Assembly: GCA_934254835.1 (NCBI GenBank) | Contig: CAKQMI010000001.1 | Location: forward strand, 14,588-78,587 | Origin: an uncultured Clostridia bacterium | GTDB lineage: Bacteria; Bacillota; Clostridia; Christensenellales; CAG-917 | DNA: 64,000 nt | Reading direction: 5' to 3' | In this document: positions 6,104-51,837 of the stretch, one piece after another | Layout: every line of letters begins with the position of its first letter | How positions within the stretch are numbered: the stretch's first letter is position 1 | The notes under the pieces: generated by a model | Database searches by the model: none | The model's input: only the letters and a program-made list of their open reading frames with translations | Told to the model about the DNA's origin: nothing | Program-made: the position numbers and the translations under genes

Positions 6104-6166
6104 ACTAATTTACTTTATAATAAAAATTCTCACCAAAAATCGGCGAGAATTCCTTTCGCCATTCGC

Positions 6167-6306
6167 AAAATCGGCGATTCTATACACTCTAAAACGGCAG
6201 TCGCCATTTCTCTTTCTCCAAAATCGGCGATTTTATGCTCTCTAAAACGGCAGTCGCTACTTCTCTTTCTCCAAAATCGGCGATTTTATACTCTCTAAAA
6301 CGGCAG
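6167..6306. repeat. 53-bp tandem repeat, about 2.6 copies
   Basis: AAAATCGGCGATT..CTCTAAAACGGCAGTCGC..TTCTCTTTCTCC restarts at 6167, 6220 and 6273. The last copy merges into the hairpin unit. Confidence 0.85.
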
Positions 6307-6421
6307 AATTTTGATGAGATTACGGGGTTCTTGGCGGGTTCCGAAAAATCCAGTGTACTTTGCGTACACGATTTTTCGGGTTCTGCCAAAACGCCGTAAG
6401 GTCGCAAAATTATGCCGTTTT
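6297..6421 (-). repeat. 125-bp three-tier hairpin unit, copy A1
   Basis: Outer arms AAAACGGCAGAATTTTGAT / TCGCAAAATTATGCCGTTTT, middle stem TTGGC/GCCAA, apical hairpin GTGTAC-TTTGC-GTACAC. Read on the minus strand it begins 2 nt after the jag stop codon. Confidence 0.8.
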
Positions 6422-6423
6422 AA

Positions 6424-7236
6424 TTAAAAGTGTTTTTTGGTATAGCCAAAGGATTTAAACTTCGGCGGTCCGTTCTTCTTCAGATTAAACTCCGTTGCGG
6501 TGTCCTCGGCGGATTTCACGGCGGGGGCTTCGGTGCAATTTTCGCGACGTTCGCCGTTTCTTCCTCTGTTTCTGTCGTTGCGCCTGTTGTCGGGGCGTCT
6601 TCCGCCACGGTCGTTATCGTAGCCTTCGCGCACGCCTCCCTCTTTGGGGACGATGACGATATGACGATTCATATCCTCGCCCTCCGACTCGGTGGTGGCG
6701 AACTTGCTGTTTTGAAGCGCGGTGTGAATGACGCGACGCTCGAACGGGTTCATAGGTTCAAGCTCGACTTTTCTTCCGGTGCGGTACGCCTTGTAGGCAA
6801 GGCGGTTGGCAAGGGACTCAAGCGTTTCGACGCGTTTTTCGCGGTAGTTTTCGGCGTTGATGGACACGCGGATAAAGTTGTGTCCGCGCTCGTTCACGAG
6901 GATAAGCGCAAGATACTGAATGGCGTCCAGCACTTCCCCGCGATAGCCGATGATGACACCGCTGTCGCTTCCCGTGATATTGACGGTGATTTCCTCGTCG
7001 CTGACCTCGCAATCGGCGTAGCAACGAAGGTTCATTCTTTCAAAAAGCCCGTTCAAGAAATCGATGACGATGTCCGCGGGGGTTTCCTTGCGCGCCACGG
7101 TCACGACCGCTTTGCTGAAAATTCCGCCTTCTTGCAAAATCTCGATTTCGGCGTTATCTCTTTCGATGCCGAGCTCTTTCAAGCCTTCCTCGATTGCCTT
7201 TTCGACCGAGGACGCTTTGACTTCTATCTTTTCCAT
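6424..7236 (-). CDS. jag: Jag/KhpB RNA-binding protein (Jag_N-KH-R3H) with Arg/Gly/Asn-rich C-terminal extension
   Basis: 270 aa with R3H-type FERRVIHTAL. Position downstream of yidC is as in Bacillota. The tail reads DNDRGGRRPDNRRNDRNRGRNGERRE. Confidence 0.85.
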   Translation of the reverse strand: MEKIEVKASSVEKAIEEGLKELGIERDNAEIEILQEGGIFSKAVVTVARKETPADIVIDFLNGLFERMNLRCYADCEVSDEEITVNITGSDSGVIIGYRGEVLDAIQYLALILVNERGHNFIRVSINAENYREKRVETLESLANRLAYKAYRTGRKVELEPMNPFERRVIHTALQNSKFATTESEGEDMNRHIVIVPKEGGVREGYDNDRGGRRPDNRRNDRNRGRNGERRENCTEAPAVKSAEDTATEFNLKKNGPPKFKSFGYTKKHF

Positions 7237-10773: not shown

Positions 10774-10797
10774 ATGCCAACCGTGAATAATACGAAC
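10774..10797. repeat. Conserved 24-mer ATGCCAACCGTGAATAATACGAAC, copy X
   Basis: Identical to 11907-11930 and to the reverse complement of 12161-12184, while the flanks are strongly diverged. Confidence 0.9.
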
Positions 10798-11075
10798 TGT
10801 ACTAATCCGAAACAACCTCTCTTTTGCAGTCAGACAGAACGAAAATATTAAAAATTGACGCCCCGTAAGCACGGGCGCATAATTTAACAACTAAACCACC
10901 ATACCATGAACATTAAACACGCAAGCCGACATTCGCACCCGAAACAATCCGTAATATACTTTTTGCTTTATTATACAACTATTTGTGGCACCACAAACAT
11001 TGCACATCCACATTGCCAAACTCACCCGCAATAGTTTTGCTTAAACAAAGCATTTTCTCTTCCATTCTTGTCATT

Positions 11076-11096
11076 GCACGCGAGCGGGTTAATACT
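11076..11096. repeat. Conserved 21-mer GCACGCGAGCGGGTTAATACT, copy W
   Basis: Identical to the reverse complement of 11989-12009. About 65 nt of weaker similarity follows in both copies. Confidence 0.9.
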
Positions 11097-11906
11097 CTAT
11101 TCCTAAGCCATAAGCGCAACAACAACTTTGTCAAAAATACAACGTCGGATCTGCGTGACCAAATCGTCAATAATTTTGACTATTTTTGAAAAAAGCAACC
11201 ACCACTACACTTGTCGTACAGAGGCGAATTTTTGCAAAACACGGATATTGCGACAATTTGGCAATGTTCATATTATCCTTGTCCGATAATAAAAACCCTA
11301 TTGTTTTTGCCTAACGAAATTATCACAAATTAAAAACAGGAACGCTGTTAAAGCAAGCAACTAATTCACTGAGAGTTTTGAAAAAAGTCTCAAATCTTTC
11401 TTTCGGAACCCTTTTTAATTTGAAAACCAAATACGACGTTACAAATAACCGAAAATATTAACCGGTCGCACATGTTCTATTTATAAAAGCATTCCTAACC
11501 GCATAAAAAAGAAACCTCCAAAAACCCCGTCTATTTTGGTAATAACAAGCTAAAACACGGCTATAAATCTTTTGCGCCACACAACACAGGAAATAACAAG
11601 GAAAGTATTCTCGAAGTCACGATATAACCATACTCGCATAATATTCTGTCTCTCACCAACCAATGTGCCCAATTTTCCCGATCTTTGAAAATTCGCCACT
11701 TGAAACACAGTAACAAGCAATTAACAAAAACATAATAAACAAACATATAAACGTCACTCAAATCCGCCAAAACCACGCTGACAAATTAAAAATCGGACAA
11801 ATACAATGATATATCGTTTCAAGAAAAGGCCAAACAAGGGCAAAACCATTACAAAAACATCAAATTTATTCAACGGGGCACGAATTTGATTTTTTATTTT
11901 TATAAT

Positions 11907-12184
11907 ATGCCAACCGTGAATAATACGAACCGTGGTCTTGCTCCGTGTTTTTGACCAAAACCTCGTTGCGCTCACGGCTTATACATACAGTATTAACCCG
12001 CTCGCGTGCCTTGTTTTCGTCTAAAAACGCGGGGGCAATACTCCTTAGACCAAACCACCGAGAATTTCGATGATTTTTGGGAAAAATGAACGCAGTTGTA
12101 CTTTTGGTACTACAAGCGAGTTTTTGCAAAAAAGCACGGAAATATCGGCGATTTCTAACAGTTCGTATTATTCACGGTTGGCAT
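11907..12184. repeat. 278-bp inverted-repeat element with perfect 24-bp termini (MITE-like or long-hairpin locus)
   Basis: The termini at 11907-11930 and 12161-12184 are exact reverse complements. The subterminal ~90 nt of both halves are recognisably related (CAAAAACACGGA next to the 24-mer). No ORF and no obvious target-site duplication. Confidence 0.6.
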
Positions 12185-12474
12185 GCAACGGCTATTCAAA
12201 CGGCGAGAAAAACATAATAAACCAAAGAAACACCCGCTTTACTATATTTTTCTCGCTATTGCAACATAAACAAATTATCAAACACAACCAATCGAAAAAT
12301 AGAACGTAAACAAGATTTTCAAAAAGCACGTTGACAGGCAATTCTTTTTTTTCAATAATATGTTAAATATACATAAACCCTGTCAACATAAAACATTCTT
12401 TGAGGTCGATTATCTCAAATATGACGTTTCTATCCGTTGACATTATGTAGATTTTCTGGGAAAAGAGCAAAAAG

Positions 12475-12483
12475 ATATCCACA
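12475..12483. promoter_or_regulatory. DnaA box-like 9-mer (1 mismatch)
   Basis: ATATCCACA versus consensus TTATCCACA. Confidence 0.45.
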
Positions 12484-12497
12484 ATGTTACTATCGAA

Positions 12498-12513
12498 CGT
12501 TTCACGTGAAACA
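12498..12513. promoter_or_regulatory. parS-like site 2
   Basis: CGTTTCACGTGAAACA matches the parS consensus at 15 of 16 positions. Confidence 0.65.
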
Positions 12514-12564
12514 ACGATGATTTTACGCTATTTTTGCTTGTCTAAAAATTGTTCCGTTTTCATA

Positions 12565-12580
12565 TGTTTCACGCGGAACA
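12565..12580. promoter_or_regulatory. parS-like site 3
   Basis: TGTTTCACGCGGAACA matches TGTTTCACGTGGAACA at 15 of 16 positions. Confidence 0.65.
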
Positions 12581-12585
12581 AAAAG

Positions 12586-12594
12586 TTGTCCACA
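12586..12594. promoter_or_regulatory. DnaA box-like 9-mer (1 mismatch)
   Basis: TTGTCCACA, sandwiched between parS-like sites 3 and 4. Confidence 0.45.
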
Positions 12595-12596
12595 AT

Positions 12597-12612
12597 TGTT
12601 CCACGCGGAACA
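12597..12612. promoter_or_regulatory. parS-like site 4
   Basis: TGTTCCACGCGGAACA matches at 14 of 16 positions. Confidence 0.5.
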
Positions 12613-12736
12613 AAACGGTGCTTTTTGGCGGGTTTTTGGGCGTTTTTCCTTGGTTTTAAGCGGTTTATTGCGGTTTGTTTGCGGTGAATTACGGCATTTT
12701 CGTTTCTTTCTCCGTGTAAAATTGGCATACCGCTTT

Positions 12737-12745
12737 TGTGGATAA
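12737..12745. promoter_or_regulatory. DnaA box (perfect consensus, reverse orientation)
   Basis: TGTGGATAA is the reverse complement of TTATCCACA. Confidence 0.6.
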
Positions 12746-12829
12746 CTTTTGCTATTTTTTGGACAAGTATAATCATCGTGCTTTGTGGCAATAATATAAG
12801 CAATTTATTAAGGAAAATGGTGGTTTTTT

Positions 12830-18738: not shown

Positions 18739-19848
18739 TTAGTTTATAATGCGCACGGGCAAAATAAGGTAAAGATATTCGTCCGCTTTCTTTTCAGTGG
18801 GGACGATGACGCCGGGCGCGGTGGACGTCGTAAAGCAAAGTTTGACAAAGTCGTCGCTTATCGCGCGGAGGCTGTCCGAAAGGTATCTTGCGTTAAATCC
18901 GATGTTAAGGTCGTGTCCCAAAAGGTCGATTGCGACGATTTCGTTGATCCCGCTGATTTCGCTCTCGGCGGAAATGGACATTTTCTTTTCGCGGATTTCA
19001 AGTTTTACGACGCTCTTCTTTTCGGTGCGGGTTGCAAGCGACGCACGGTCGATTGCGGTGTCAAACGCCTTTTTATCGACAAACACGGTCGTTGTGAAGT
19101 CGGTGGGAATAATCTTGTTGTAGTTGATATATTCGCCCTCGATAAGCCTTGTGACGATTTTGGTATTGCCGAGGTCAACCATAAAGTAGTTTTTCTCGAT
19201 ACTGACTTTTACGTTTTCGTCGCTGTCGTCAAGAAGTTTTGAAATTTCGCTCATACTTCTTGCGGGGACGATAATTTTTATATCCGCTCCGCCGTACTCG
19301 ATTTCCTTTTTGCAATAAGCAAGGCGATATCCGTCCGACGCGACGCCTATAATCTTATTGTCCGAAATTTCGATACTGCAACCTTTGAGGGTGGGGCGAT
19401 TGTCTTCGTTTGCCGTGCAGAAAATAATTTTTTCGATAAGGTTTTTTAGTTCCTTTTTTACGATATAAAAAGAATTTTCGTCGTTGACGTTTTTGAACAC
19501 GGGGTACTCGTCGGCTTCCATCGTCTGGATATAACCGCTGTTTTCGCCGTATGTAAGCTTAAGCGTTGTTTCGTTCGTCGTGTCGATAATGACGTCTTCC
19601 TTATCGATTTTTCGGACGTATTCGGTAAAGTACTTTCCGAGAATAACCGTTTCGCCGTCGATGAAGATATCGGCGTTGATTTTTTTCTCGATCGAAAGTT
19701 CCAAATCGGTTGCGGTGAGTGTCAACGTATTGTTTTCCGCCTTAAGTTTTATGCCGTTAAGAATGGGCATAACTTTCTTAAGAGGAAGCGCTTTCCCGAC
19801 CTGTGTTAATGCATCGGATAATTCAAGGCTGTCGCAAGAGAGTTTCAT
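18739..19848 (-). CDS. dnaN: DNA polymerase III beta sliding clamp
   Basis: 369 aa, three-domain clamp-like sequence immediately downstream of dnaA. Confidence 0.95.
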   Translation of the reverse strand: MKLSCDSLELSDALTQVGKALPLKKVMPILNGIKLKAENNTLTLTATDLELSIEKKINADIFIDGETVILGKYFTEYVRKIDKEDVIIDTTNETTLKLTYGENSGYIQTMEADEYPVFKNVNDENSFYIVKKELKNLIEKIIFCTANEDNRPTLKGCSIEISDNKIIGVASDGYRLAYCKKEIEYGGADIKIIVPARSMSEISKLLDDSDENVKVSIEKNYFMVDLGNTKIVTRLIEGEYINYNKIIPTDFTTTVFVDKKAFDTAIDRASLATRTEKKSVVKLEIREKKMSISAESEISGINEIVAIDLLGHDLNIGFNARYLSDSLRAISDDFVKLCFTTSTAPGVIVPTEKKADEYLYLILPVRIIN

Positions 19849-20040
19849 CGGTTTCTCCTTATATTTATATTGTTTTATATTTCTTTGATAATGATTTTGT
19901 TAATAAGGCTTGTGGAAAAGTTGAAGTTGAACGTTTCGCACAAAATATAGACAAAACCAAAATTTAAGAGACAATATAGTGTGGTTTTTAATGTTAATAA
20001 CTTTGTTTACAACTTTTTTTAATTATAAACATATCTACAA

Positions 20041-21408
20041 TCAGCGTTTATATAACATGTCTTTTATGTCGTTGATTTGTATTTTCAGTTTTTGAGCAGA
20101 CGCGTTATTGGACGAAAGGGCGTCGGTGATTTTATCGCGCGAGTGAATAATAGTCGCGTGGTCGCGCCCGCCGAAAATACTGCCGATTGACACGAGAGGC
20201 ACCGACAACATATCGCAAATAAGATAAATAGCGACCATTCTCGGCTCGACAAATTCCTTGTTTTTCTTTTTGCCGATGACGTCGTTTTCGGACACGCCGA
20301 AGTATTTGCACGTCGTTGAAAGAACGTCGTAGGCGTCGAAATGCTCCTTTTTAGTCTCGATATACCCGGAGAGCGCCTCTTTCGCAATGGCAAGCGACGC
20401 GGGTTGACCTGAAAGTTGAGTGTAAAACATAACTTTGTTCAAAAGCCCTTCGAGGTCGCGGATATTGTTTTCCATATTACTTGCGATAAAAGACGCGACT
20501 TCGTCCGACAAAAAGAAGTTTTCGGCGTCGGCTTTCTTTTTCAAAATCGCGATTCTCGTTTCGATGTCGGGCGGTTGAATGTCGGCAAGCAGTCCCCACT
20601 GGAAACGCGTCCTCAGCCTTTCTTCAAGCGGGGCGATTTCCTTTGGCGGACGGTCGGACGAGATGATGATGTGTTTGTCGTTTTGATAAAGGTCGTTGAA
20701 GGTGTGGAACAACGCTTCTTGCGTGCCTTGTTTTGAGGCGATAAACTGAATATCGTCAATCATCAAAACGTCGACAGAGCGGTATTTTTCACGGAAAGCA
20801 ACGCTGGTTTTGGAGTCTCTGATAGACTCGACATAGTCGGCGATATACTTGTCCGTCGTGATGTACATAATGCGTTTTTTAGGAAATTTTGCGTTGATAT
20901 AATTTCCTATCGCGTGCATAAGGTGAGTTTTTCCAAGCCCGACACCGCCGTAAATAAACAGGGGATTGAAGCGTCCGCCGGGGTGCTCGGACACGGCTTG
21001 CGCGGCGGCAAAAGCAATCTCGTTGGACTTCCCGACGACAAAGTTGGAAAAGGTATATTTTTTATTGAAAGAAAACCCGGTGTCGTCGGCTTTTTCAACC
21101 TTTTTCACGACAAGTTCGTCACCCAAAGTATAGTCTTGTTGTTTCAAGCAGTCGGCTTTTTCCGACTCGATAATAATCTTGACGTCGGAGATAATTGGGT
21201 TGACTTCTTTCACCGCTTCCAAGATGGTGTCGCGGTAATTTTTGACGATGGTGTTTTTGCTACTTTGACTGCCCGATTGCAGTACGAGAGTGTGACCGAT
21301 AAAACATATCGGTTCCAACTTTTCAATCCAGACCTCATAGCTTATCGCCTGCAGTCTTGCGGACAATTTAATTTTGGTGTCGTTCCAAAGGGTATTGATG
21401 TCGATCAT
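20041..21408 (-). CDS. dnaA: Chromosomal replication initiator DnaA
   Basis: 455 aa with Walker A GGVGLGKTHL, box VII, and the C-terminal DNA-binding motif GGRDHATIIHS. Confidence 0.97.
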   Translation of the reverse strand: MIDINTLWNDTKIKLSARLQAISYEVWIEKLEPICFIGHTLVLQSGSQSSKNTIVKNYRDTILEAVKEVNPIISDVKIIIESEKADCLKQQDYTLGDELVVKKVEKADDTGFSFNKKYTFSNFVVGKSNEIAFAAAQAVSEHPGGRFNPLFIYGGVGLGKTHLMHAIGNYINAKFPKKRIMYITTDKYIADYVESIRDSKTSVAFREKYRSVDVLMIDDIQFIASKQGTQEALFHTFNDLYQNDKHIIISSDRPPKEIAPLEERLRTRFQWGLLADIQPPDIETRIAILKKKADAENFFLSDEVASFIASNMENNIRDLEGLLNKVMFYTQLSGQPASLAIAKEALSGYIETKKEHFDAYDVLSTTCKYFGVSENDVIGKKKNKEFVEPRMVAIYLICDMLSVPLVSIGSIFGGRDHATIIHSRDKITDALSSNNASAQKLKIQINDIKDMLYKR

Positions 21409-21504
21409 AATAATTATATGATACCATTATTAATCAAAAAAAACAAACAAAATGATAGTATAATATAAAAATAAGAAAGATTTATTTATAAGAAAAAACC
21501 GCCG

Positions 21505-22608
21505 TTATTTCAGCGGTTTTTCAGTGATTGTGCCGTTCTTCACACAATAGAGTTTTGACAAATTCAGGGGTTTAACATCAAATTCCGTACATGTAATCAC
21601 CGTTTGCGTGCGGTTGGCAAGTTCGATGAGTTTTTCGCGACGAGCAACGTCCAGCTCGCTCAAAACGTCGTCCAAAAGTAAAATCGGGGCTTCGCCCGTT
21701 TCGTTTTTGAAAAGCGACAACTCGGCAATTTTTATTGAAAGCGACACGCTTCTTTGTTGTCCTTGCGACGCAAATTTTCTGGCATCCACGTCGTTCAAAA
21801 CGATTTTTATATCGTCGCGGTGAGGTCCTTGCGTGGTGTACATAAGGGCGCGGTCGCGCTCCACCGACGACGAAAATGCCGATAAAAGATTGTTGAATAT
21901 TTCGTCGTAAGTTTCGCCTTTTATCGAACATTCGTAGTTAAGCGACAGTGTTTCTTTGCCGTCGGAAAGCTCGAAGTGAGAGTCCTTTGCGAGGGTTGAA
22001 AGTTTTTTGACGTAGTTTTTTCTGGCAAGTATCAAATTCGCGCCGACTTCCGCCATTCCGGCGTCCCAAATGGAAAGCAAAGACGGCAGATTTTCGTTGC
22101 GGTTTTCGTTTTTCAAAAGGGTGTTGCGCTGTTGCAAAATCTTGTTGTATTTTGCAAGGGATTTGAAGTAAGTTTTCGATTGTTGCGACAATGAAATGTC
22201 CAAAAAACGCCGTCTTTCGTCGGGGCCCGCCTTGACAAATCGCATTTCGTCGGGCGAAAAATAAACGACGTTGACGATGCCGATAAGTTCCGACAGCCTT
22301 TTCACGGGCAAATTGTCGATTTTTATTTTTTTCGCGCCTTTGTTTTCGATGACGAGCTCGATGACGTGCGTGCGGTATTTTTTGGCGATTTCCGCCTTGA
22401 TATAAGCGCGCTCCATAGAAAAGGAAATAAGCTCCTTTTCACGGCTTGTACGGGGGGATTTTCCGAGTCCCAACAAATAAATCGCCTCAAGCATATTCGT
22501 TTTTCCGCTCGCGTTTTCGCCCGACAGCACGTTGATGCCTTGCCCGAACGTAACGGACGCCGACGAATAGTTTCTGAAATTTTTGAGTTGAAGCGACTTG
22601 ATAAACAT
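21505..22608 (-). CDS. recF: DNA replication and repair protein RecF
   Basis: The start MFIKSLQLKNFRNY is at 22608. It shows Walker A GENASGKTN, signature SQGQQRS and Walker B LLLDDV. Confidence 0.93.
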   Translation of the reverse strand: MFIKSLQLKNFRNYSSASVTFGQGINVLSGENASGKTNMLEAIYLLGLGKSPRTSREKELISFSMERAYIKAEIAKKYRTHVIELVIENKGAKKIKIDNLPVKRLSELIGIVNVVYFSPDEMRFVKAGPDERRRFLDISLSQQSKTYFKSLAKYNKILQQRNTLLKNENRNENLPSLLSIWDAGMAEVGANLILARKNYVKKLSTLAKDSHFELSDGKETLSLNYECSIKGETYDEIFNNLLSAFSSSVERDRALMYTTQGPHRDDIKIVLNDVDARKFASQGQQRSVSLSIKIAELSLFKNETGEAPILLLDDVLSELDVARREKLIELANRTQTVITCTEFDVKPLNLSKLYCVKNGTITEKPLK

Positions 22609-22897
22609 ACGATTATTATACCATAACAAAAAATAAAGTAAAAGGAATTGAGAAAATTTACCTCAAAACAAAAAATAAAACGAAAAACCCGCTGTGCAGG
22701 GCATACAAGCGCACAAAAAAATGACCGTACAAGTCCACGGAGATTAAAAAACCGCCGTCGTAGCCCCCAAAATCCCCCTGAAAAGGACAAATTATTAAAA
22801 ATTAGCAAAAAACGGTTTGCATATTATTGATAATATGTTATACTTAATGTACTTATTATTTTATGCGTGCGCACGCATAGCGTACGCGAGAGGGATT

Positions 22898-27769: not shown

Positions 27770-28135
27770 GCTTGCGCAGGATTGTGCCTACGGCACGATA
27801 GTTGCCTGTCGGCACGAAGCGGTGCCTTCCCAGGGGATTGTCACGTCACTTCGTTCCTCACAATGACAACTCTGTTTGTCATTCTATGGCATTGCGAGAG
27901 GATTCTCTCTTCTGTCTTTCTGTTGCGTTGCGAGAGTATTCTCTTTTCTGTCATTCTGAGGCATCGCCATAGGAGATGCCGTGAGAATCTCCCGGAAGGG
28001 ACACCTTGTGAAAAGAGGAGTCTCTGTACGATGTGTGCCTGTCGGCACGAAGCGGTGCCTTCCCAGGGGATTCCCGCGCTTCGCTCGGAATGACAAAACT
28101 GCATTGCCATTGTGAGAGAAAGGGGTACATTCGTC
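27770..28135. repeat. Intergenic repeat cluster B
   Basis: Several copies and arms of the GTCATTCTGAGG...GTGAGAATCTC family in both orientations (for example 27949-28005 forward, 28037-28094 reverse). Confidence 0.85.
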
Positions 28136-29409: not shown

Positions 29410-29890
29410 CTCCGATTTTGCCAACTTGCGATTTGTCGGCTTTTGACATTCCGAGGCATTTATGCGGTGCCTTCCCAGGGGATTGTCACGTCACCCGTCG
29501 CACACTTCACTTTTGAAATCACGTTAACGCAAGCGATAACGCTCGCTCTTTTGCTCGTGTGCGCCTTTTTCTCCACGCAAGTACAAAAGAATCTTGCGTG
29601 GGTTTTAACAAGGTGTCCCTTCCGGGAGATTGCCACGCTACGCTCGCAATGACATAAAGTGAGTTGCACCGAATAGCAAAAGAGAGCACGAAAATCTGCT
29701 ATTTTTTAACAAGCAAACCGTTTTCCCCTTCTGCACGAAGTACTTAATGTCTTTCCAAGCGAAGAGTGGCGTTCATCTCTCTTCTGTCATTCTATTGCGT
29801 TGCGTGAGGATTCTCTCTTCTGTCATTCTGAGGCATCGCCACAGGCGATGCCGTGAGAATCTCGTGGGAACGAACCTTATGAAATGATGA
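29410..29890. repeat. Intergenic repeat cluster C
   Basis: Contains a ~95-nt module homologous to the reverse complement of 38518-38612 and GTCATTCTGAGG-family copies (29821-29873 forward, 29590-29655 reverse). Confidence 0.85.
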
Positions 29891-30042
29891 GCCTTTCGGC
29901 ACGTTGCGGTGTCGCGAGGAAGGGCGAGAGGACGGCACGACTTTACAAAACAAATGAAAAAATTACTTTTGTTTGCAAAAAATATTGAAATAAACCTTTA
30001 TATTATGCTATAATTACTATATCTTGAAATTTGGAGGAAATT

Positions 30043-31314
30043 ATGGCAGATTTTGACTTCAAAGTCGCATCCGAAAGTATGATGGACTTTATCAAAAAAG
30101 TCGAGACAGAAATCGGTCCGCGTCTTCCCGGCTCCGACGAGGAACGCGCCGGCGCAAAACTCATCAAAGAAGAGTATGAAAAAAACATTGGTATTAAGCC
30201 CGTGTCCGAACCGTTCAAGGTTGCCCCCGAAAGCGGAATCGGCTCGATTCCTTATATCGGTATCGGCGGACTTATCGCACTCATCGGCTTTTTCATTTAT
30301 CCGATAGTAGGCGCGGTTATCGCGGTGCTTTGCTTCCTGTACTTTGCGGTTATGGGCGGATTTTACACCCAGATTTTCGACTTCCTGTGGAAAAAGAAAG
30401 ACACCGAAAACTTCTATACCGTGCAAGAGCCGTTGTCGGGCAAGGTTGACTACACAATCGTATTGTCGGCGCACTACGACAGCAGTTGGAACTGGAATCT
30501 TGCAAAGAAAAACCCCAAAACCTTCATTCCGAAAATCGTATACGGCGTCGTGGGACTCCTTTCGATTTTGGTGTTCGGTTTCGTGTTGCAATTCGCGGAT
30601 AAAGGGGCGTACGCTCAGCCCTTGTGGACAAACGCCGCTTCAATCACTACTTGGAAATGGTACGTCTATCTCGGCTATATCCTGCCCATCGTCTGCATAC
30701 CGGGGCTTTACTATATCACGCAATTCTTGTCGCACGACAAAACCATCGCGTCCCCCGGCTGTATGGACAACCTCACGGGCATCGGCTTGAACCAAGAAAT
30801 CGCAAAACACTTCAACCGTCACCCCGAAGATTTGCCCGAAAACTGCCGTCTTATCTGCGCCGCTATGGCGTGTGAGGAGTCCGGACTTCGTGGCGCACGC
30901 GCTTTCGTCAAACTCCACAAGGACGACGGTATGCTCAAAAATTGCTATCAAATCAACGTCGACAGTATCTCGGACGAGGACTACTTCGAGGTCATTCAAG
31001 GCGACGCAATTCAAATGTGCAAATTCGATATGGAACTGGGCGATATGCTTTACGAATCCTTGCAGGAACTCGGTCTTGTCAAAAAGACAGGCAGAATTTG
31101 GAACCCCGTCGGCGGTTGCGACAGCACCCCGTTCTGCCGTGCAGGCGTGAAAACAATCACCTTCGCCGCGCAAAACCCCATCGCCACCGACTACTACCAC
31201 ACTTCCAACGATAAGTCGGATCGCTTAAAGACCAGCGTGTTCGAGGGAGGCATCGAGGCGGTGTATAGGACTATTAAGAAAATCGGCGCAAAAGAAGACG
31301 CGAAACGTCAATAA
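30043..31314 (+). CDS. M28-family peptidase-like membrane protein
   Basis: ATG at 30043 follows GGAGG. It has internal TM helices, SAHYDS and CEESGLRGA motifs, and a paralog at 43448..44761. Confidence 0.65.
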   Translation: MADFDFKVASESMMDFIKKVETEIGPRLPGSDEERAGAKLIKEEYEKNIGIKPVSEPFKVAPESGIGSIPYIGIGGLIALIGFFIYPIVGAVIAVLCFLYFAVMGGFYTQIFDFLWKKKDTENFYTVQEPLSGKVDYTIVLSAHYDSSWNWNLAKKNPKTFIPKIVYGVVGLLSILVFGFVLQFADKGAYAQPLWTNAASITTWKWYVYLGYILPIVCIPGLYYITQFLSHDKTIASPGCMDNLTGIGLNQEIAKHFNRHPEDLPENCRLICAAMACEESGLRGARAFVKLHKDDGMLKNCYQINVDSISDEDYFEVIQGDAIQMCKFDMELGDMLYESLQELGLVKKTGRIWNPVGGCDSTPFCRAGVKTITFAAQNPIATDYYHTSNDKSDRLKTSVFEGGIEAVYRTIKKIGAKEDAKRQ

Positions 31315-31427
31315 TTTGCGATCTTTTGAGTTTTTTCGAGAACCTGAAAATCCGTGTACGCAATAGTACACTAGGATTTTCAGAACCCCGAAAGAAACGT
31401 CAAAACCTCATCAAATTCTTGACGTTT
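31303..31427 (+). repeat. 125-bp three-tier hairpin unit, copy D1
   Basis: Arms AAACGTCAATAATTTGCGAT / ATCAAATTCTTGACGTTT, apical hairpin CTGAAAATCC-GTGTAC-GCAATA-GTACAC-TAGGATTTTCAG. Its first 12 nt encode the last three codons and the TAA stop of the upstream gene. Confidence 0.85.
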
Positions 31428-31604
31428 CGTACAACATATATAATCGCACTTTTTGAGTTTTCGGCAGAACTTGCTCGGTTGCGTACGAAATAGTACGCGC
31501 GCTCGCAAAACCTGCCGAGAAACGTCAATGGGGCCCCCGCGAGATACTTTGTACTCGTGGGGCATAGAGGCATCAAATTCTTGACGTTTCGTACAACATA
31601 TATA
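31428..31604 (+). repeat. Variant hairpin unit D2 with an extra inserted hairpin
   Basis: Shares the inner left arm and full right arm with D1. It carries GCGTAC-GAAATA-GTACGC and GGGGCCCCCGCGAGATACTTTGTACTCGTGGGGC hairpins. The direct repeat TTGACGTTTCGTACAACATATATA occurs at both ends. Confidence 0.75.
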
Positions 31605-31610
31605 AATTAA

Positions 31611-31740: not shown

Positions 31741-32045
31741 ATTATAATATATCATAAGATGTCATTCTGAGGAGCGAAGCGACGTGAGAATCTCCCGGAA
31801 GGGAACCTTGTTGCTTATGCAGTGATATGCCTACGGCGTGATATTGTCTTCGACAGTGATATTGCGTTGCAGTGATATTTGCCCTGTGGGCAAGTTGCGG
31901 ATAAACACCTTAGCTTTGGCGACAGCCAAAATATAACTTTGACGAAGTCAAAATATAATTTGCATTGCAAATATAACTTGCGTAGCAAATTTAACTTGCG
32001 TAGCAAATTTAACTTGCGAAGCAATCTAACCCACGCAAGACACTT
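31741..32045. repeat. Repeat cluster D, distal part (GTCATTCTGAGG arm plus mini-hairpin arrays)
   Basis: 31761-31807 is a family arm. 31819-31900 holds GTGATAT plus a small hairpin, four times. 31935-32027 holds five ~18-nt units of the form AACTTGCNNNGCAAAT. Confidence 0.8.
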
Positions 32046-32162
32046 GTACTTGTGTGGAGAAAATGTGAGTATTGACAAAAAGCCGTGGAATAAAGTATAA
32101 TTTTATCAAGTCGTTGTCGCTTTTTCAATGAAAATACAAAAGACAACAAAAGGGAGAAAAAT

Positions 32163-37200: not shown

Positions 37201-37352
37201 AACTGAACAACTGGGGCAATCTCGGGCTTAAAGAAACCGACGATGAACTCAAAAAGAAAGTTTACTACAACGGCGCAACAATCGAGGTTGGCGATATGAA
37301 AGCGGTCGAATTCTTAATCCTTGCTATCAAAGCATTGCCGACGCTACCATGA
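34275..37352 (+). CDS. Large (1025 aa) N-terminally membrane-anchored repeat protein, unknown function
   Basis: RBS GGAGGAAAT. One N-terminal TM helix, then at least six copies of a ~40-aa module, for example ALADKTIGDLQERGIDDLINDALLSDVMDIDG and GLQDKTIGNLSSGVDVVVGGTKLHDVLEIDG. Confidence 0.75.
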   Translation: MKGALGRFLTFLLGLVVGVLLVGGTIAGVVYYAVAGVTINDVENYTKQEFTFIDKNAEIRGKSLLDIYDMMKGGNIRETTVADAKRVFGIDIITILENTLEIKVDDKNRDKLSALKVTEIFKGDNLKTVLNCVTLGDILQKTGVDTTTGLASKPILQEHINEPVIDGLNAMLKSFEINNMTIAEMQYLLGVSFGAGGVLDTIANVKIGELNSAINNVKFEDILPDFDRDHYTMWDSANKKAVRFSRKSAQFTVNSLFKTDGTSDFFEYVPTDKKVGGETYYALDAEKGIIKVSDNGNWKLKEGKELPDFRNRYDKEGNQNRFGIAYVVPKDSHGMTVTERYKDDACTISDESGLFYYEYTENASGDYYRVGAAIRTKIQDATATEPAKYSEIIEWRGYVEKTKADYFEAEPWKTYGYSRSGEVTDEKLMEHDSDDALAIYALMHVGKSEPVLKALADETLNTLDGAIGDMKLGQIVTINDDSPAILKELKNSSISSIGEDIKKIKIGTIMKVNADNVAEKATDGEYIALPAGKEYKGTFITAKDGDKTVYLVKYKKGLVGFGERYNITEKASNGVVVALADKTIGDLQERGIDDLINDALLSDVMDIDGDVFVEDASGEFVFDTDTAGKNGFFRLATAGEDATHKRVYEGASNAVVKKLSTVGVQNIANRMDDVVDSTLLKEVVDVQERYELRKATTDEIANNAVKKYFDLTAIYGDKDTVFEGTFNVGYDQDDEDKKDIRFVSVGDTSLPAGTTQYVIVKKASSGVLVGLQDKTIGNLSSGVDVVVGGTKLHDVLEIDGRVYVKANNYEEAVANSVTGTAYYKDGNLFLEADYIRNKNGKYVKIDGKYYEFGNLYKETAGGYVVDNANGTHFLYEGNYYKIADYKRYNFDGETVTEFYACVYEGKTEKILAKMATMTVQDLAKDGTMEKVMNDMRLNEVMKIKDSTSILYGLDNSKLSSVEAEVTDKIKDATLRELNNWGNLGLKETDDELKKKVYYNGATIEVGDMKAVEFLILAIKALPTLP

Positions 37353-37924
37353 CCTATCACGTTAGAAAATACAAAGACGAGGATCGCGACGCCGTAAGGA
37401 AGATTTGTCACCTCACGGCAACCGCGCCCGCCTACGTCAAAAATCCCGAACTTGTCGCAACGCTTTACGCCGATTATTACATCGAGTTCGAGCCCGACGG
37501 CATTTTCGTTTTGGCGCGCGACGAGGACGACGTGGCGGTCGGCTATATCCTGTCGAGCCTTGACTACAAATCATTTTTGAAAACTTTCAATAAGTACTTT
37601 ATGCCACGGGTAAGGAAACTTTCAAGGCTTGAAGCGTTCACGCACTTTTTCGCTTTCCGCCAAAGTCTTTATATGGACGCGAAAAAATACCCCGCGCACC
37701 TGCATATCGACATTTTGCCCGGGGCGCAACACCAAGGATACGGCGCGAAACTTATGGACGCACTCATGGACTACCTCTTTGAAAAGGGCGTGAAAGGCGT
37801 GCATCTGGGCGTCGGCGCGGACAACGCGGGCGCAATCAGGTTTTACGAGAAGTATGGGTTTACGATGATACACAACTTTAAATCTTTTGGCAAAGTCTTC
37901 GCCAAAACAATAAAACGGCGATAA
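37349..37924 (+). CDS. GNAT-family N-acetyltransferase
   Basis: 191 aa with an acetyl-CoA motif region QHQGYGAKLMDAL and AIRFYEKYGF. An ATGA overlap links it to the upstream gene. Confidence 0.8.
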   Translation: MTYHVRKYKDEDRDAVRKICHLTATAPAYVKNPELVATLYADYYIEFEPDGIFVLARDEDDVAVGYILSSLDYKSFLKTFNKYFMPRVRKLSRLEAFTHFFAFRQSLYMDAKKYPAHLHIDILPGAQHQGYGAKLMDALMDYLFEKGVKGVHLGVGADNAGAIRFYEKYGFTMIHNFKSFGKVFAKTIKRR

Positions 37925-38035
37925 TTTGCGATATTCTGCTTTTTCGGCGGAACCCCGCTCGGTTACGTACGTCAGTACGCGCCCTCGCGAGAACCCGCCG
38001 AGAAAAACACAATCTCATCAAATTCTCGCCGTTTT
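37912..38035 (+). repeat. 124-bp three-tier hairpin unit, copy E1
   Basis: Its outer 43 nt and 45 nt are identical to copy F1 (50812-50936), but the apical hairpin differs (ACGTAC-GTCA-GTACGC core). Its first 13 nt encode K-R-R and the TAA stop of the GNAT gene. Confidence 0.9.
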
Positions 38036-38080
38036 ATAGGGAAAGAATTATCTCATCAAAATTCTGACTTTTTAGAGGCA

Positions 38081-38250
38081 GGGGACCCCGCGGGATACTG
38101 TGTACCCGTGGGGAGAAGGAGCAAACGAGCATAAGACAAACAAACAAATGAAATGAGATTGTTTGGTCAAAAGCGAGATTTGCGACGCGTACACTAGGAT
38201 TTTCAGAACCTGCAAAGAACCCCAAAAATCCATCAAATTCTCGCCGTTTT
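38081..38250 (+). repeat. 170-nt conserved module, copy E2
   Basis: About 90 percent identical by eye to 51207-51377. It has a GGGG..CCCGCGGGATACT.TGTAC..CG.GGGG hairpin, a CAAACAAACAAA tract, GCGACGCGTACACTAGGATTTTCAGAAC, and ends in ATCAAATTCTCGCCGTTTT. Confidence 0.85.
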
Positions 38251-38289: not shown

Positions 38290-38800
38290 TTTTTAATAGA
38301 TTTTATTTGTCATTGCGAGCGTCGTGACGTTTCTTTCTTCTGTCATTGCGAGGAGCGAAGCGACGTGGCAATCTCCCGGAAGGGTATCCTTTTATGTCAT
38401 TCTGAGGAGCGAAGCGACGTGAGAATCGCCTGGGAAGGCACCATATCATACTGGCATTTATGAGGTTTCGTTCCCACGAGATTCCCACGCTACGCTCGGA
38501 ATGACAACAAGAGTTTCTCACACAAGCAAAAGAGTGAGCGTTATCGCTTGCGATAACGTGATTTCAAAAGCGAAGTGTGTGACGCAGTGACGTGGCAATC
38601 TCCCGGAAGGGTATCCTTTTATGTCATTCTGAGGAGCGAAGCGACGTGAGAATCTCCCGGAAGGGCAACCTTGTTGCTTTCGCAGTGATATTGTCTTCGA
38701 CAGTGATATTTGCCCTGCGGGCAAGTTGCGGATAAATACCTTAGCTTTGGCGACAGCCAAAATATAACTTGCATTGCAAAAATAATCGTTCTTGTCCTCG
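38290..38800. repeat. Repeat cluster E, distal part
   Basis: Contains GTCATT(C/G)(T/C)GAGG-family arms at 38341, 38395 and 38623, the 95-nt module at 38518-38612, and a GTGATAT mini-hairpin array at 38681-38783 homologous to 31819-31960. Confidence 0.85.
38395..38506. repeat. 112-bp palindromic element of the GTCATTCTGAGG family
   Basis: TGTCATTCTGAGGAGCGAAGCGACGTGAGAATCGCCTGGGAAGGCACC, a 21-nt loop, then GGTTTCGTTCCCACGAGATTCCCACGCTACGCTCGGAATGACA. Homologs are at 50969-51080 and 51483-51600. Confidence 0.85.
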
Positions 38801-50113: not shown

Positions 50114-50806
50114 ATGAAAAATAAAAACAAATCCAAAAACAGACAATCCAAAAATAAACAGTTTGCGGTCATAGGTCTTGGAAGATTCGGCTCCACCGTC
50201 GCCAAAACCTTGTTTGAAAAAGGCGAGGAAGTGCTTGCCGTCGATATCAGGGAAGAAATTATCACCGAGGCGCACGAATACACCACCCACGCCGTCGTCG
50301 CCGACGTCACCGATGAGCGTACCTTGCGCGCGCTCGGCATCGAAAACTTTGACGTCGTCATCATCGGCATTGCCAGCGACTTGGAAGCAAGCGTCTTGTG
50401 CACCCTCACTTGCAAGGAAATCGGCGTCAAAAAGGTCATCGCAAAGGCGGAAAACCTTAAACATAAGCTCGTGTTGGAGCGCGTCGGCGCGGACGAGGTC
50501 GTCATTCCCGAAATGGAAATGGGCGAAAAAATGGGCGCACGCCTTTCCAACCCATTGCTCCACGACATTATGACAATCAGCAGTAAATACAGCATCATCG
50601 AGATGGAACTGCCGTCCAGCTGGGCGGGAAGCTCGCTCATCTCTCTCGATATCCGCAAAAAGTACGACGTCAACGTTTTGGCGGTCGAGCGCGACAACGA
50701 CGTCATTCTCAACTTCGCCGCCGACGAACCCCTCCTCGAGGGCGATACCTTGCTTGTCGGGGGGAGTAGGGAGATGCTTGACCTTCTGCAAAACCAATAC
50801 AACTAA
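50114..50806 (+). CDS. ktrA: Potassium uptake protein, TrkA/KtrA (RCK) subunit
   Basis: 230 aa with the Rossmann motif FAVIGLGRFG and an RCK_C region. Confidence 0.9.
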   Translation: MKNKNKSKNRQSKNKQFAVIGLGRFGSTVAKTLFEKGEEVLAVDIREEIITEAHEYTTHAVVADVTDERTLRALGIENFDVVIIGIASDLEASVLCTLTCKEIGVKKVIAKAENLKHKLVLERVGADEVVIPEMEMGEKMGARLSNPLLHDIMTISSKYSIIEMELPSSWAGSSLISLDIRKKYDVNVLAVERDNDVILNFAADEPLLEGDTLLVGGSREMLDLLQNQYN

Positions 50807-50811
50807 AACGT

Positions 50812-50936
50812 AAAACGGCGATAATTTGCGATATTCTGCTTTTTCGGCGGAACCTGAAAAATCGTGTACGGTCAGTACACTGGATTTTTCAGAACCCGCC
50901 GAGAAAAACACAATCTCATCAAATTCTCGCCGTTTT
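50812..50936 (+). repeat. 125-bp three-tier hairpin unit, copy F1
   Basis: Starts 6 nt after the ktrA stop. The outer arms are identical to E1. The apical hairpin is CTGAAAAATC-GTGTAC-GGTCA-GTACAC-TGGATTTTTCAG. Confidence 0.9.
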
Positions 50937-50968
50937 GAATTTTGAGACATTCTGCCGTCGAAAGATTA

Positions 50969-51080
50969 TGTCATTCTGAGGAGCGTAGCGACGCGAGAAT
51001 CCCCTGGGAAGGCACCATATCATACTGACGTTTATGCGGTTTCGTTCCCACGAGATTCCCACGCTACGCTCGGAATGACA
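50969..51080. repeat. 112-bp palindromic element of the GTCATTCTGAGG family
   Basis: Homolog of 38395-38506 with the same loop sequence ATATCATACTG.C.TTTATG. Confidence 0.85.
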
Positions 51081-51206
51081 GAAAAGAGCGTTAAGCCACG
51101 CTACGCTCGGAAAGACAACAAGTGCGTCGCACGCAAGGAACACGCTTTCATTACAACCACTTTGGATAGGTACATTCCACTGTCATTCTGAGGCATCGCC
51201 CATTAT

Positions 51207-51377
51207 GGGGCCCCCGCGGGATACTATGTACTCGCGGGGAAAAGGAGCAAACGAGCATAAGACAAACAAACAAACAAAATGAGTTTGTTAGGTCAAAAGT
51301 GAGATTTGCGACGCGTACACTAGGATTTTCAGAACTCCGAAAGAAACGTCAAAAATCCATCAAATTCTCGCCGTTTT
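51207..51377 (+). repeat. 171-nt conserved module, copy F2
   Basis: Homolog of 38081-38250. Confidence 0.85.
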
Positions 51378-51482
51378 GGGAACATATAATTCTGCTGTTT
51401 TGAGCATCATTTCATTAAATTCTTGCCGTTTTAGATATGTTAGTTTACGTCATTCCGAGTGTAGAGTGACGTTTTTCTTTTC

Positions 51483-51600
51483 TGTCATTCTGAGGAGCCC
51501 CAACGGGGCTCCGTGAGAATCTCGTGGGAACGAAACCGCATAAACGTCAGTATGATATGGTGCCTTCCCAGGGGATTCCCACGCTACGCTCGGAATGACA
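51483..51600. repeat. 118-bp palindromic element, central part inverted relative to 50969-51080
   Basis: The loop GCATAAACGTCAGTATGATAT is the reverse complement of the loop in the 50969 copy. One arm carries an extra GC hairpin, AGCCCCAACGGGGCT. Confidence 0.85.
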
Positions 51601-51793
51601 ACAAGTGCGTCGCACGCAGATAACCTCATTATTCAAAAAAACTTCACAAAAAAACCGTATTCATAAGCAAAAAATAACAGGTAGTCACGAATACCCATAC
51701 ACGCTTATTTTTCAGAAACAAAAAACGGCTGTTAATCTATATAGCAAGAGTGTCCCCTTGACAGTCGAAAAAAAAGGAACGACTTGTGAGCAA

Positions 51794-51820
51794 AGAAAAA
51801 CGCACCGTCGAAACGGTGCG
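51794..51820 (-). terminator. Intrinsic terminator after rpsR
   Basis: Stem CGCACCGT / ACGGTGCG with a tetraloop, followed on the minus strand by TTTTTCTTT. Confidence 0.75.
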
Positions 51821-51837
51821 TTGTTTGTTGGTTGAAA

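Follow-up and report, generated by a model that had tools for sequence, protein, structure and literature searches.

The stretch of DNA analysed here, 64,000 nucleotides long and called the window throughout, comes from an uncultured Clostridia bacterium of the Christensenellales (lineage CAG-917; assembly GCA_934254835.1, contig CAKQMI010000001.1, positions 14,588 to 78,587) and spans the chromosomal origin region, with rnpA, yidC, jag, mnmE, mnmG, gidB, parB, dnaN, dnaA, recF, gyrB and gyrA. It carries four full copies and at least six fragments of an imperfect palindrome, hereafter the unit (Table 1). The units form a large palindromic repeat family, previously undescribed, in uncultured human-gut Christensenellales, an abundant host lineage in which the family is expanded in one clade. 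Contigs matching the window at 100% identity came from Hadza gut metagenomes, and close homologues of its proteins come from metagenome-assembled genomes assigned to Christensenellales, Christensenellaceae or Eubacteriales. Small hairpin repeats of this sort shape bacterial 3' untranslated regions (UTRs) and intergenic regions, and only a minority of families have had their active strand and mobilising enzyme identified.

All four window units lie at the end of a gene. The 37912 unit overlaps the last codons and the stop of a GNAT gene, whose open reading frame (ORF) ends K-R-R-TAA inside the unit, and the K-R-Q-TAA end of an M28 peptidase ORF likewise falls within the 31302 unit. The other two start 6 nt past the TAA of trkA (50812 unit) and 3 nt past the stop of jag, also named khpB (6297 unit). 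A first-pass annotation, made from the letters of the sequence, had listed four full copies of about 125 bp. Direct reading and a covariance model recovered all of them where it had placed them, with the palindrome reaching 1-3 nt further into the flanks, and the model found no further full copy in the window. Each copy is one long imperfect hairpin by folding energy: in the orientation in which the copies were first written, the energies of the four were -49.1, -56.1, -46.4 and -54.3 kcal/mol, with z-scores of -5.9 to -9.8 and none of 200 shuffles equally stable. Other particulars of that annotation were borne out as well. The 37912 and 50812 units share 44 and 46 identical outer nucleotides and differ in their apical hairpins; the apical motif GTAC-N4-6-GTAC is present in all four units; and the paired arm changes, from CGGCGA/TCGCCG to CGTCAA/TTGACG and CGGCA/TGCCG, were all found, together with the middle-stem variants.

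The component motifs are strongly enriched in the window. GTAC-N3-8-GTAC occurs at eight sites against 1.6 expected, five of them in units or unit fragments and one in a diverged relative, which has better-conserved orthologues in many related contigs. A 20-mer of the right end has seven matches against 0.02 expected, and the left-end sequence three against 0.05. The fragments are varied. Two right halves are joined, exactly at the apex GTAC, to a further repeat of about 105 nt that we call the G module; a truncated second unit has a 33-nt hairpin nested in its right arm; and a tandem repeat directly downstream of the 6297 unit ends, in every copy, in the unit right-end terminus CTGCCGTTTTAGAGAG (minus strand).

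Table 1. Positions in the window of the units, their fragments, the adjoining genes and other repeats or features
Feature	Position	Strand	Details
Full unit, GNAT gene	37912-38035	+	outer stem type O1 (CGGCGA/TCGCCG), middle module 'a', apex type B; 110.5 bits
Full unit, trkA	50812-50936	+	outer stem O1, middle module 'a', apex type A; 133.4 bits
Full unit, M28 peptidase gene	31302-31428	+	outer stem O2 (CGTCAA/TTGACG), middle module 'b', apex type A; 124.1 bits
Full unit, jag	6297-6421	-	outer stem O3 (CGGCA/TGCCG with AATTTTG), apex type A; 122.6 bits
5'-truncated second unit	31444-31590	+	middle and apex type B at 31453-31528 (48.1 bits), right end 31571-31590
Right half of unit	38189-38250	+	apex GTAC to right end; joined at GTAC to the G module
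Right half of unit	51315-51377	+	joined at apex GTAC to the G module
Solo right-end fragment (CATTAAATTCTTGCCGTTTT)	51387-51432	+	repeat finder and end-sequence match
Solo right end (ATCTCATCAAAATTCTGACTTTTTAGAGG)	38050-38078	+	outer type O4; 14 nt past the full 37912 unit
53-nt tandem repeat	6166-6306	-	2.7 copies, 93% match; between jag and mnmE
Diverged 104-nt relative	12052-12154	-	GTAC-N5-GTAC apex; 32.2 bits, E-value 2e-6; adjoins the DnaA-box cluster
Purine-rich 3' tail ATAGGGAAAG	38036-38045	+	directly 3' of the 37912 hairpin
Exact 35-nt duplication	31409-31443, 31571-31605		right end plus flank
GNAT gene	37349-37924
trkA	50114-50806
M28 peptidase ORF	30031-31314
jag/khpB	6424-7236	-
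33-nt GGGG hairpin	31530-31562, 38081-38113, 51207-51239		first copy nested in the right arm of the truncated unit
G module	38081-38188, 51207-51314		about 105 nt
GTCATTCTGAGGAGCGAAGCGACGTGAGAATC repeat family	27808-28100, 29460-29890, 31760-31810, 38300-38680, 50966-51140, 51440-51620		intergenic, both orientations
Gut-1-like stretch	38666-38731		sub-threshold; similar stretch at 31800-31890
16-nt repeat	31819-31879		Tandem Repeats Finder
18-nt tandem repeat (AAATATAACTTGCGTAGC)	31929-32024		5 copies
Sigma-70-like promoter	32072-32101		TTGACA-18-TATAAT
DnaA-box-like cluster	12400-12800		TTATCCACA variants
Region without ORF of at least 100 aa	10100-12400		about 2.3 kb, 37% GC
27-nt sequence, three copies	10774-10800, 11907-11933, 12158-12184		third copy inverted
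65-nt inverted pair	11076-11140, 11945-12009
dnaN, dnaA, recF	18739-22629	-	beside plus-strand gyrB/gyrA

A census with a covariance model, which the first pass had proposed, and with pattern scans gave more than 100 distinct relatives in related gut genomes and metagenomes. Scanning one genome per species with a 19-mer of the right end located the family in two other genomes, CP091734.1 and MSGY01000006.1, all other matches in that scan being single chance matches; a metagenome scan returned at least 120 stretches, mostly from human gut. Regular-expression and covariance-model searches of two GTDB genomes and about 100 human-gut metagenome contigs supplied the 62 distinct units of our alignment, or about 101 under a looser definition. 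Assemblies often break at a unit, and the repeat accounts both for assemblies that fragment at gene ends and for enlarged intergenic regions. The trkA-rpsR spacer, for example, measures about 1025 nt in the window (50806-51831) versus 163 nt in a repeat-free relative (L160 3669-3832), and the extra sequence is almost wholly made of repeat modules.

The position of the units relative to genes proved to be the most distinctive feature of the family. The first-pass annotation was right that the copies form a hairpin family and missed that they are anchored at stop codons with fixed polarity. In 60 of 69 distinct left-flank contexts, an ORF of 80 codons or more ran in the direction of the unit, with the end of its stop between -15 and +16 of the unit start, most often at +1 (19 contexts), +12 (13), +2 (12) or 0 (5), and the stop was TAA in 59 of these 60. 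Either the A-rich left end of the unit completes the stop (TA/A), or the ORF reads AAA-CGG-CGA-TAA into the unit, which itself provides TAA in two of the three reading frames. The nine contexts without an anchored stop lay at locus edges or just past a terminator, or belonged to the second of two tandem units. No unit in a truly reversed orientation relative to its gene was present among the contexts examined (60:0), and the rule holds for all four window units, behind the genes for the GNAT protein, the M28 peptidase, TrkA and Jag. Matches to a convergent ORF turned out to be spurious ORFs spanning repeats, each with a co-oriented gene as well. An apparent inversion behind trkA in another species (locus L156, 77% TrkA identity) concerned a unit that abuts the stop of a convergent gene and so keeps the rule; a further unit in that species lies directly behind a gene of its own orientation. 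An orientation set by replication only is unlikely, as about one third of the window genes to the right of the origin lie on the other strand, yet no unit is reversed.

The repeat family remodels protein C-termini and stop codons. The GNAT protein of the window is without the ancestral C-terminal ~12 residues and ends in a unit-encoded K-R-R and a unit-encoded stop, that of the sister species has a longer, unrelated C-terminus, and in another species (L165 6914-7507) the protein ends in K-K-S-stop, derived from a different unit subtype. On the far side, the units adjoin the transcription terminators of the host. Its ordinary terminators are A-tract/stem/T-tract hairpins right at stop codons, and the unit outer stem resembles them, but only four T come after a stem of about 55 bp, where an intrinsic (rho-independent) terminator has a short GC-rich stem-loop with a U-tract of about 5-8 directly behind it. 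A canonical terminator with a perfect stem was found at most 120 nt downstream in 34 of 96 right-flank contexts, typically at 10-30 nt. Lying as a rule between the stop codon and the gene's own intrinsic terminator, the units would be transcribed in sense orientation as part of the 3' UTR. Core-clade units carry, past the hairpin, a purine-rich tail with the family consensus T[AG][AG]G[AG]GA.

We then considered the fold itself. Over 13 units RNAalifold predicted 40 pairs, 21 of which showed double-sided changes. In the 62-unit alignment, with a 42-pair structure, 16 pairs comprising 185 cells were changed on both sides, compared with 56±6 cells in shuffled controls (0/500 reached the observed value) and at most 6 pairs or 33 cells when the partners were slid; descent and conversion link the copies to one another, so that the shuffle counts cannot be taken as probabilities and overstate the significance. 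The outer stems fall into the types CGGCGA/TCGCCG, AAGTCA/TGACTT, CGGCA/TGCCG and CGTCAA/TTGACG, with a fifth covarying type, CGGCTTAAACAAG/CTTGTTTAAGCCG, in a more distant species. Upper-middle stems read GGCA/TGCC, GACG/CGTC, TGCA/TGCA, CCGA/(C)CGA or CGGCG/CGCCG, and lower-middle stems TTTTGAG/CGTCAAAA, TTTCGGCG/CCCCGAAA, TTACGGCG/CCCCGTAA or TTTTGC/ACACAA. In about 89% of the 101 units the outer arms are of matching type; chimeras whose outer arms do not match account for about 5% of units, composites for about 6%. That both arms change together is thus statistically strong on 62-101 distinct copies.

The strand on which this fold matters can be read from the non-Watson-Crick pairs. In all of 13 units tested, the complement of the orientation first written was more stable, by 7-20 kcal/mol, and carried 4-6 G·U pairs per fold versus 1-2 on the strand as written; with DNA parameters the advantage was 2.5-7 kcal/mol. 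The best-folding strand is hence not the one that the first-pass annotation had set down but its complement, which is antisense to the adjacent gene. Across the 62 units, in gene-sense orientation, the paired columns comprised 2254 Watson-Crick, 311 A·C and 9 G·U cells, so that 86.9% of cells are paired on the sense strand versus 98.5% on the antisense strand. Three of the A·C columns are invariant and nine are variable, with the A·C state in 3-41 copies; G·T states occur in eight columns, each in just one or two copies. Since both states are seen, mutation makes both kinds, and only the variants that pair on the antisense strand become frequent. A second repeat, a 33-nt GGGG hairpin described below, served as a control: although it lies on the same strand as the units (88:0), it has 16 G·T and no A·C cells on the sense strand. 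A regional strand-specific mutation bias behind the asymmetry is therefore rejected, the co-oriented control having the opposite sign.

The wobble asymmetry argues that the fold matters in a single strand, RNA or DNA, as the first-pass annotation had supposed; palindromic duplication alone would not yield it. On the evidence of the alignment, it shows that proliferation or retention of the units would depend on folding of the antisense strand. The further claim that the paired changes indicate selection for the fold stands in part: covariation and wobble asymmetry speak for it, while much of the swapping reflects recent replacement or gene conversion rather than stepwise compensation in situ. 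With its internal control module of opposite sign, wobble asymmetry offers a means of reading the folding strand of such a repeat from sequence.

These data bear on three readings in which the unit works where it stands. In the first, the mRNA hairpin is a sense 3' UTR element that modulates the upstream gene through protection from 3' exonucleases, partial termination or hindrance of ribosomes at the stop. The unit is always sense-oriented, at a stop codon and upstream of a terminator, and would be part of the mRNA; its sense hairpin still has -45 to -57 kcal/mol, and the A·C mismatches spaced along the stem could block cleavage by RNase III. Liang, Rudd and Deutscher are said to have found in 2015 that E. 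coli REPs within 15 nt of stop codons impede ribosomes. A selected sense fold, however, predicts common G·U and rare A·C, against the 9 and 311 observed; the genes involved have no function in common (trkA, GNAT, M28 and jag among many more); and the family includes chimeras and is missing from orthologous sites of sister species. We regard a sense 3' UTR function as improbable.

The same asymmetry would fit a function of the antisense RNA, as a hairpin terminator or insulator against convergent or antisense read-in or as a cis-antisense RNA. G·U is confined to that strand, an A-tract and a T-tract bracket the hairpin as in the host's bidirectional terminators, the polarity relative to the gene is absolute, and a convergent gene lies opposite two of the four units in the window. 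Against this, just four U follow the stem in either direction, the units at 31303 and 6297 lie between co-directional genes, where antisense transcription is not expected, and there is no promoter-like site feeding the antisense strand. Patchy presence, within-species replacement and arm-mismatched chimeras also fit a required function poorly, and we hold an antisense RNA role to be rather unlikely. The third possibility is a protein-binding site in double-stranded DNA, for a nucleoid-associated protein, gyrase or a regulator acting at an operator, formed by the GTAC-N4-7-GTAC apex and the direct repeat GAAC...GAAC, the palindrome being incidental. It is true that 62 of 62 units keep the apex GTAC/GTAC and both GAAC motifs unchanged while the adjacent stems vary, and binding of gyrase or IHF is known for REP/BIME and Correia elements (partly after PMC2649163). 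Such a site, though, explains neither covariation along 40 or more pairs nor the strand asymmetry, and leaves stop-codon anchoring and gene polarity without a reason, which makes this reading very hard to credit.

Comparison of orthologous sites revealed rapid turnover. The GNAT and M28 sites are empty in three other species, a sister species whose glutamine synthetase III is 85% identical and two that are more distant, and a search of the 22-kb syntenic regions at these two genes with filters off found no unit. Of two genomes encoding an identical TrkA protein, one has a filled trkA site and the other an empty one, and the site is also empty in species at 64-72% identity. Units are also replaced in place. 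In one strain of the window's species the flanks are 98.6% identical over 4 kb while the unit is 78% identical, with different middle modules; in other species, conversely, the flanks are 83-84% identical versus 94% for the unit. Outer, middle and apical modules were seen in all pairwise combinations, from which it follows that the copies recombine. The GAAC direct repeats on either side of the apex had suggested that the apical hairpin arose by nested insertion into a loop of GAAC; no empty two-tier unit was encountered, and we favour central-tract gene conversion over such an insertion. Elsewhere the G module is placed between the left and right halves of a unit (locus L028 at ~5190-5420, and loci L100 and L136), as if by insertion or recombination at the tip of the hairpin. 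There are more right ends than left ends, 9-11 to 4 in the window and 248 to 148 in the unit-bearing loci, the latter being an ascertainment-biased count, and the extra right ends often lie just downstream of a full unit of different outer type.

Taken together, the evidence describes a multi-copy, patchy and modular repeat, not a stand-alone structured RNA gene. We favour the reading, with a probability of about 0.5, that the units are a non-autonomous modular palindromic repeat of the REPIN, ERIC or miniature inverted-repeat transposable element (MITE) kind, which inserts or persists at gene 3' ends and probably undergoes copying or filtering in the form of a single-strand hairpin, with gene conversion keeping its copies alike. 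A copy would be propagated or kept only if its bottom (gene-antisense) strand can fold into the ~55-bp hairpin, in which G·T or G·U wobbles would be tolerated and A·C would not. The intermediate would most plausibly be single-stranded DNA, on which a strand-specific enzyme would act in the manner known from REPIN/RAYT or IS200/IS605-type elements. Selection of antisense-strand folding would leave the sense (mRNA) hairpin weakened by A·C mismatches. The nested modules (outer stem, two middle stems and apex) would be swapped between copies by gene conversion or recombination, as the module combinations indirectly show, and this exchange would give the swapped apical hairpins, the replacement at one site within a species and the occasional chimeras. 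The gene polarity may be mechanistic, or it may be selective, in that the mRNA would then carry a mismatch-weakened hairpin rather than a near-perfect 55-bp duplex. If mechanistic, it would suggest a way of targeting that is new for mobile DNA.

Several results weigh against this favoured reading, beside the overstated significance of the shuffle counts, and the rival readings keep an appreciable probability. Pfam searches identified no transposase, RAYT and TnpA included, no recombinase and no reverse transcriptase in the window. When 1263 ORFs from 99 unit-bearing loci were clustered and examined for the variability of their neighbours, no ORF cluster recurred in many contexts in 0.86 Mb of unit-bearing contigs. 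The loci scanned contained neither inverted unit pairs flanking a gene, as at RAYT loci, nor left and right unit ends enclosing an ORF. No target-site duplication was detected, with 3-nt direct repeats at 0/66 units and no non-palindromic 2-nt direct flanks, and the GTAG/CGTC tag at the 5' end was absent from all 66. At the empty sites no insertion or excision junction could be reconstructed, the flanks being too diverged. Unit polarity follows gene direction, whereas single-stranded DNA transposition of the IS200/IS605 type predicts that it follows replication direction. Finally, the excess of right ends is left unaccounted for by simple cut-and-paste.

The flanks also bear on whether the unit is a classical MITE, the derivative of a DDE transposon (for example of the IS630/Tc1-mariner type) inserting at TA, with the palindrome formed by extended terminal inverted repeats and the TA of a stop codon tolerated as target since the terminal A of the element regenerates TAA. 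The traits are MITE-like: terminal inverted repeats of 17-19 nt, a size of ~125 bp, no coding capacity, presence or absence at orthologous sites, and stops provided in two of three frames. TA...TA surrounds 24 of 66 units. Direct identity of the flanks is restricted, however, to the palindromic TA and AT, which fit an extension of the hairpin equally well; the non-palindromic flanks are inverted-complementary (CA/TG, AA/TT), never direct, and extend the palindrome. A TA target duplication is thus indistinguishable from palindrome extension, and we rejected it as a demonstrated feature. Elements with terminal inverted repeats normally insert both ways, against the 100% polarity of the units; covariation runs through the whole interior, beyond the ends; a mechanism on double-stranded DNA leaves the strand-specific wobble asymmetry unexplained; and the search for a transposase in the window and the unit-bearing contigs was negative. 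We consider this origin unlikely.

A more specific version was also entertained, in which the units go beyond selfish repeats and constitute a system that follows the polarity of transcription, is anchored at stop codons and is active as the hairpin of the template (antisense) strand, either mobilised by an enzyme or domesticated as an insulator against antisense transcription. The mobilised version may involve a single-strand-specific enzyme coupled to transcription or translation termination, and the surplus of copies truncated at the 5' side but with an intact right end could hint at copying from the 3' end. This proposal seems to us a long shot; if true, its targeting or functional logic has not been described for bacterial palindromic repeats.

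The family is kept apart from any named one: it fails the sequence features of REP/REPIN and attC elements and has no demonstrable target duplication. The first-pass annotation had recognised neither a known REP type nor a described RNA family, and we concur. The REP tags are absent, and Rfam 15 gave no match at gathering thresholds; in E-value mode the units drew just sub-threshold matches to generic hairpins (miRNA precursors). The closest parallel is with REPINs, for which compensatory hairpin changes between arms and an asymmetric tailed hairpin intermediate have been described (PMC3116915), so that covariation alone has precedent (PMC3116915). A strand-specific single-stranded DNA mechanism has been proposed for REPINs and shown for IS200/IS605 (PMC3116915, PMC6006769). 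Units and REPINs are alike as extragenic multi-copy hairpins of ~100 nt with compensatory arm changes and an asymmetric single-stranded tail, and both have higher-order clusters, decayed singlets and no target duplication (PMC3116915, PMC6006769). They differ in that the unit arms are not REPs (they have no GTAG/CGTC tag, and reading the alignment revealed no general short sub-palindrome in each arm), that searches of the window and the unit-bearing contigs brought up no RAYT, that REPINs are described as random in extragenic space whereas units are strictly at the stop and co-oriented, and that units occur in Bacillota (Christensenellales), not in Proteobacteria or Cyanobacteria. Palindrome-associated elements derived from IS200/IS605 (PATE) have distinct subterminal hairpins at both ends on one strand, a specific target of 4-5 nt 5' of the left end and an orientation tied to the replication fork; the units fold strand-specifically and show no duplication, but they have a single hairpin and are oriented by genes (60:0).

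ERIC, or IRU, is a 127-bp enterobacterial imperfect palindrome in transcribed intergenic regions, MITE-like and at times entering reading frames (PMC2759123). Like it and the related enterobacterial repeats RU-1, RU-2 and RU-3, the units are imperfect palindromes of almost equal size in transcribed intergenic locations; no sequence relation was seen, and wobble asymmetry and stop-codon anchoring have not been reported for ERIC. The Correia elements (CREE/NEMIS) of Neisseria are hairpin repeats processed in mRNAs (PMC2649163). Together with the pneumococcal BOX, RUP and SPRITE elements they resemble the units in being 100-150-bp inverted repeats co-transcribed with their neighbours, with hairpins cleavable by RNase III (partly after PMC2649163), and in modular or mosaic copies and presence or absence between strains. 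Correia elements, however, duplicate TA and carry promoter and IHF sites, whereas no duplication is demonstrable for units, and the units differ from all of these in their absolute polarity and better-folding antisense strand. Strict stop-codon anchoring, absolute polarity and an antisense wobble asymmetry beside a control of opposite sign are the unusual features of the family.

Integron attC sites are imperfect palindromes of 57-141 bp that follow a stop codon in fixed orientation, conserve fold over sequence and are recognised as the folded bottom strand. ERIC, for its part, occurs in both orientations with a highly conserved, non-modular sequence. The units share with attC, by analogy only, the place directly after a stop, the fixed orientation and the bottom-strand fold; they differ in having neither the core sites R'' (RYYYAAC) and R' (GTTRRRY), found in 0/66 units, nor a cassette array or integrase, and their neighbours are housekeeping genes. 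Membership of attC or REP is ruled out by the missing core sites and tags. An origin from tRNA or tmRNA was likewise rejected, as the window has no gene for either, and so was carriage by phage, the one IMG/VR match lying in a host-gene context at a contig end.

The window contains other repeats beside the units. The GGGG hairpin, with the structure GGGGNCCCC[5 nt]ATACT..GTA[5 nt]GGGG, was present as 97 instances of 22 variants in the loci, shares the intergenic regions of the units and is nested inside unit right arms; its stem covaries as well (CCCCGCGGG/CCCGTGGGG, CCCCAAAAG/CTTTTGGGG and CCCCACAAG/CTTGTGGGG). The G module consists of a GGGG hairpin, AAGGAGCAAACGAGCA, a second small hairpin of variable sequence and GAGATTTGCGACGC. 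Another abundant intergenic repeat is built around GTCATTCTGAGGAGCGAAGCGACGTGAGAATC(C/T)CC..GGGAAGG and forms inverted pairs of up to 72 nt with 96% complementarity; part of it may resemble the 5' end of the enterobacterial ERIC consensus. The weak match to the Rfam family Gut-1 (RF01706; 27.8 bits versus a gathering threshold of 50, E-value 0.004) lies in a part of the intergenic mosaic that carries CAGTGATAT repeats.

Around the diverged relative, the DnaA-box-like cluster coincides with the minimum of the cumulative GC skew and probably marks oriC. The genes dnaN, dnaA and recF lie 6-10 kb to its right, an unusual origin arrangement. The adjacent region without long ORFs has a strong skew of C over G (-0.29) and holds the 27-nt sequence, the last two copies of which bracket the diverged relative, and the 65-nt inverted pair. 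Downstream of the M28 peptidase gene, the perfect sigma-70-like promoter lies just past the 18-nt tandem repeat and serves the gene at 32163.

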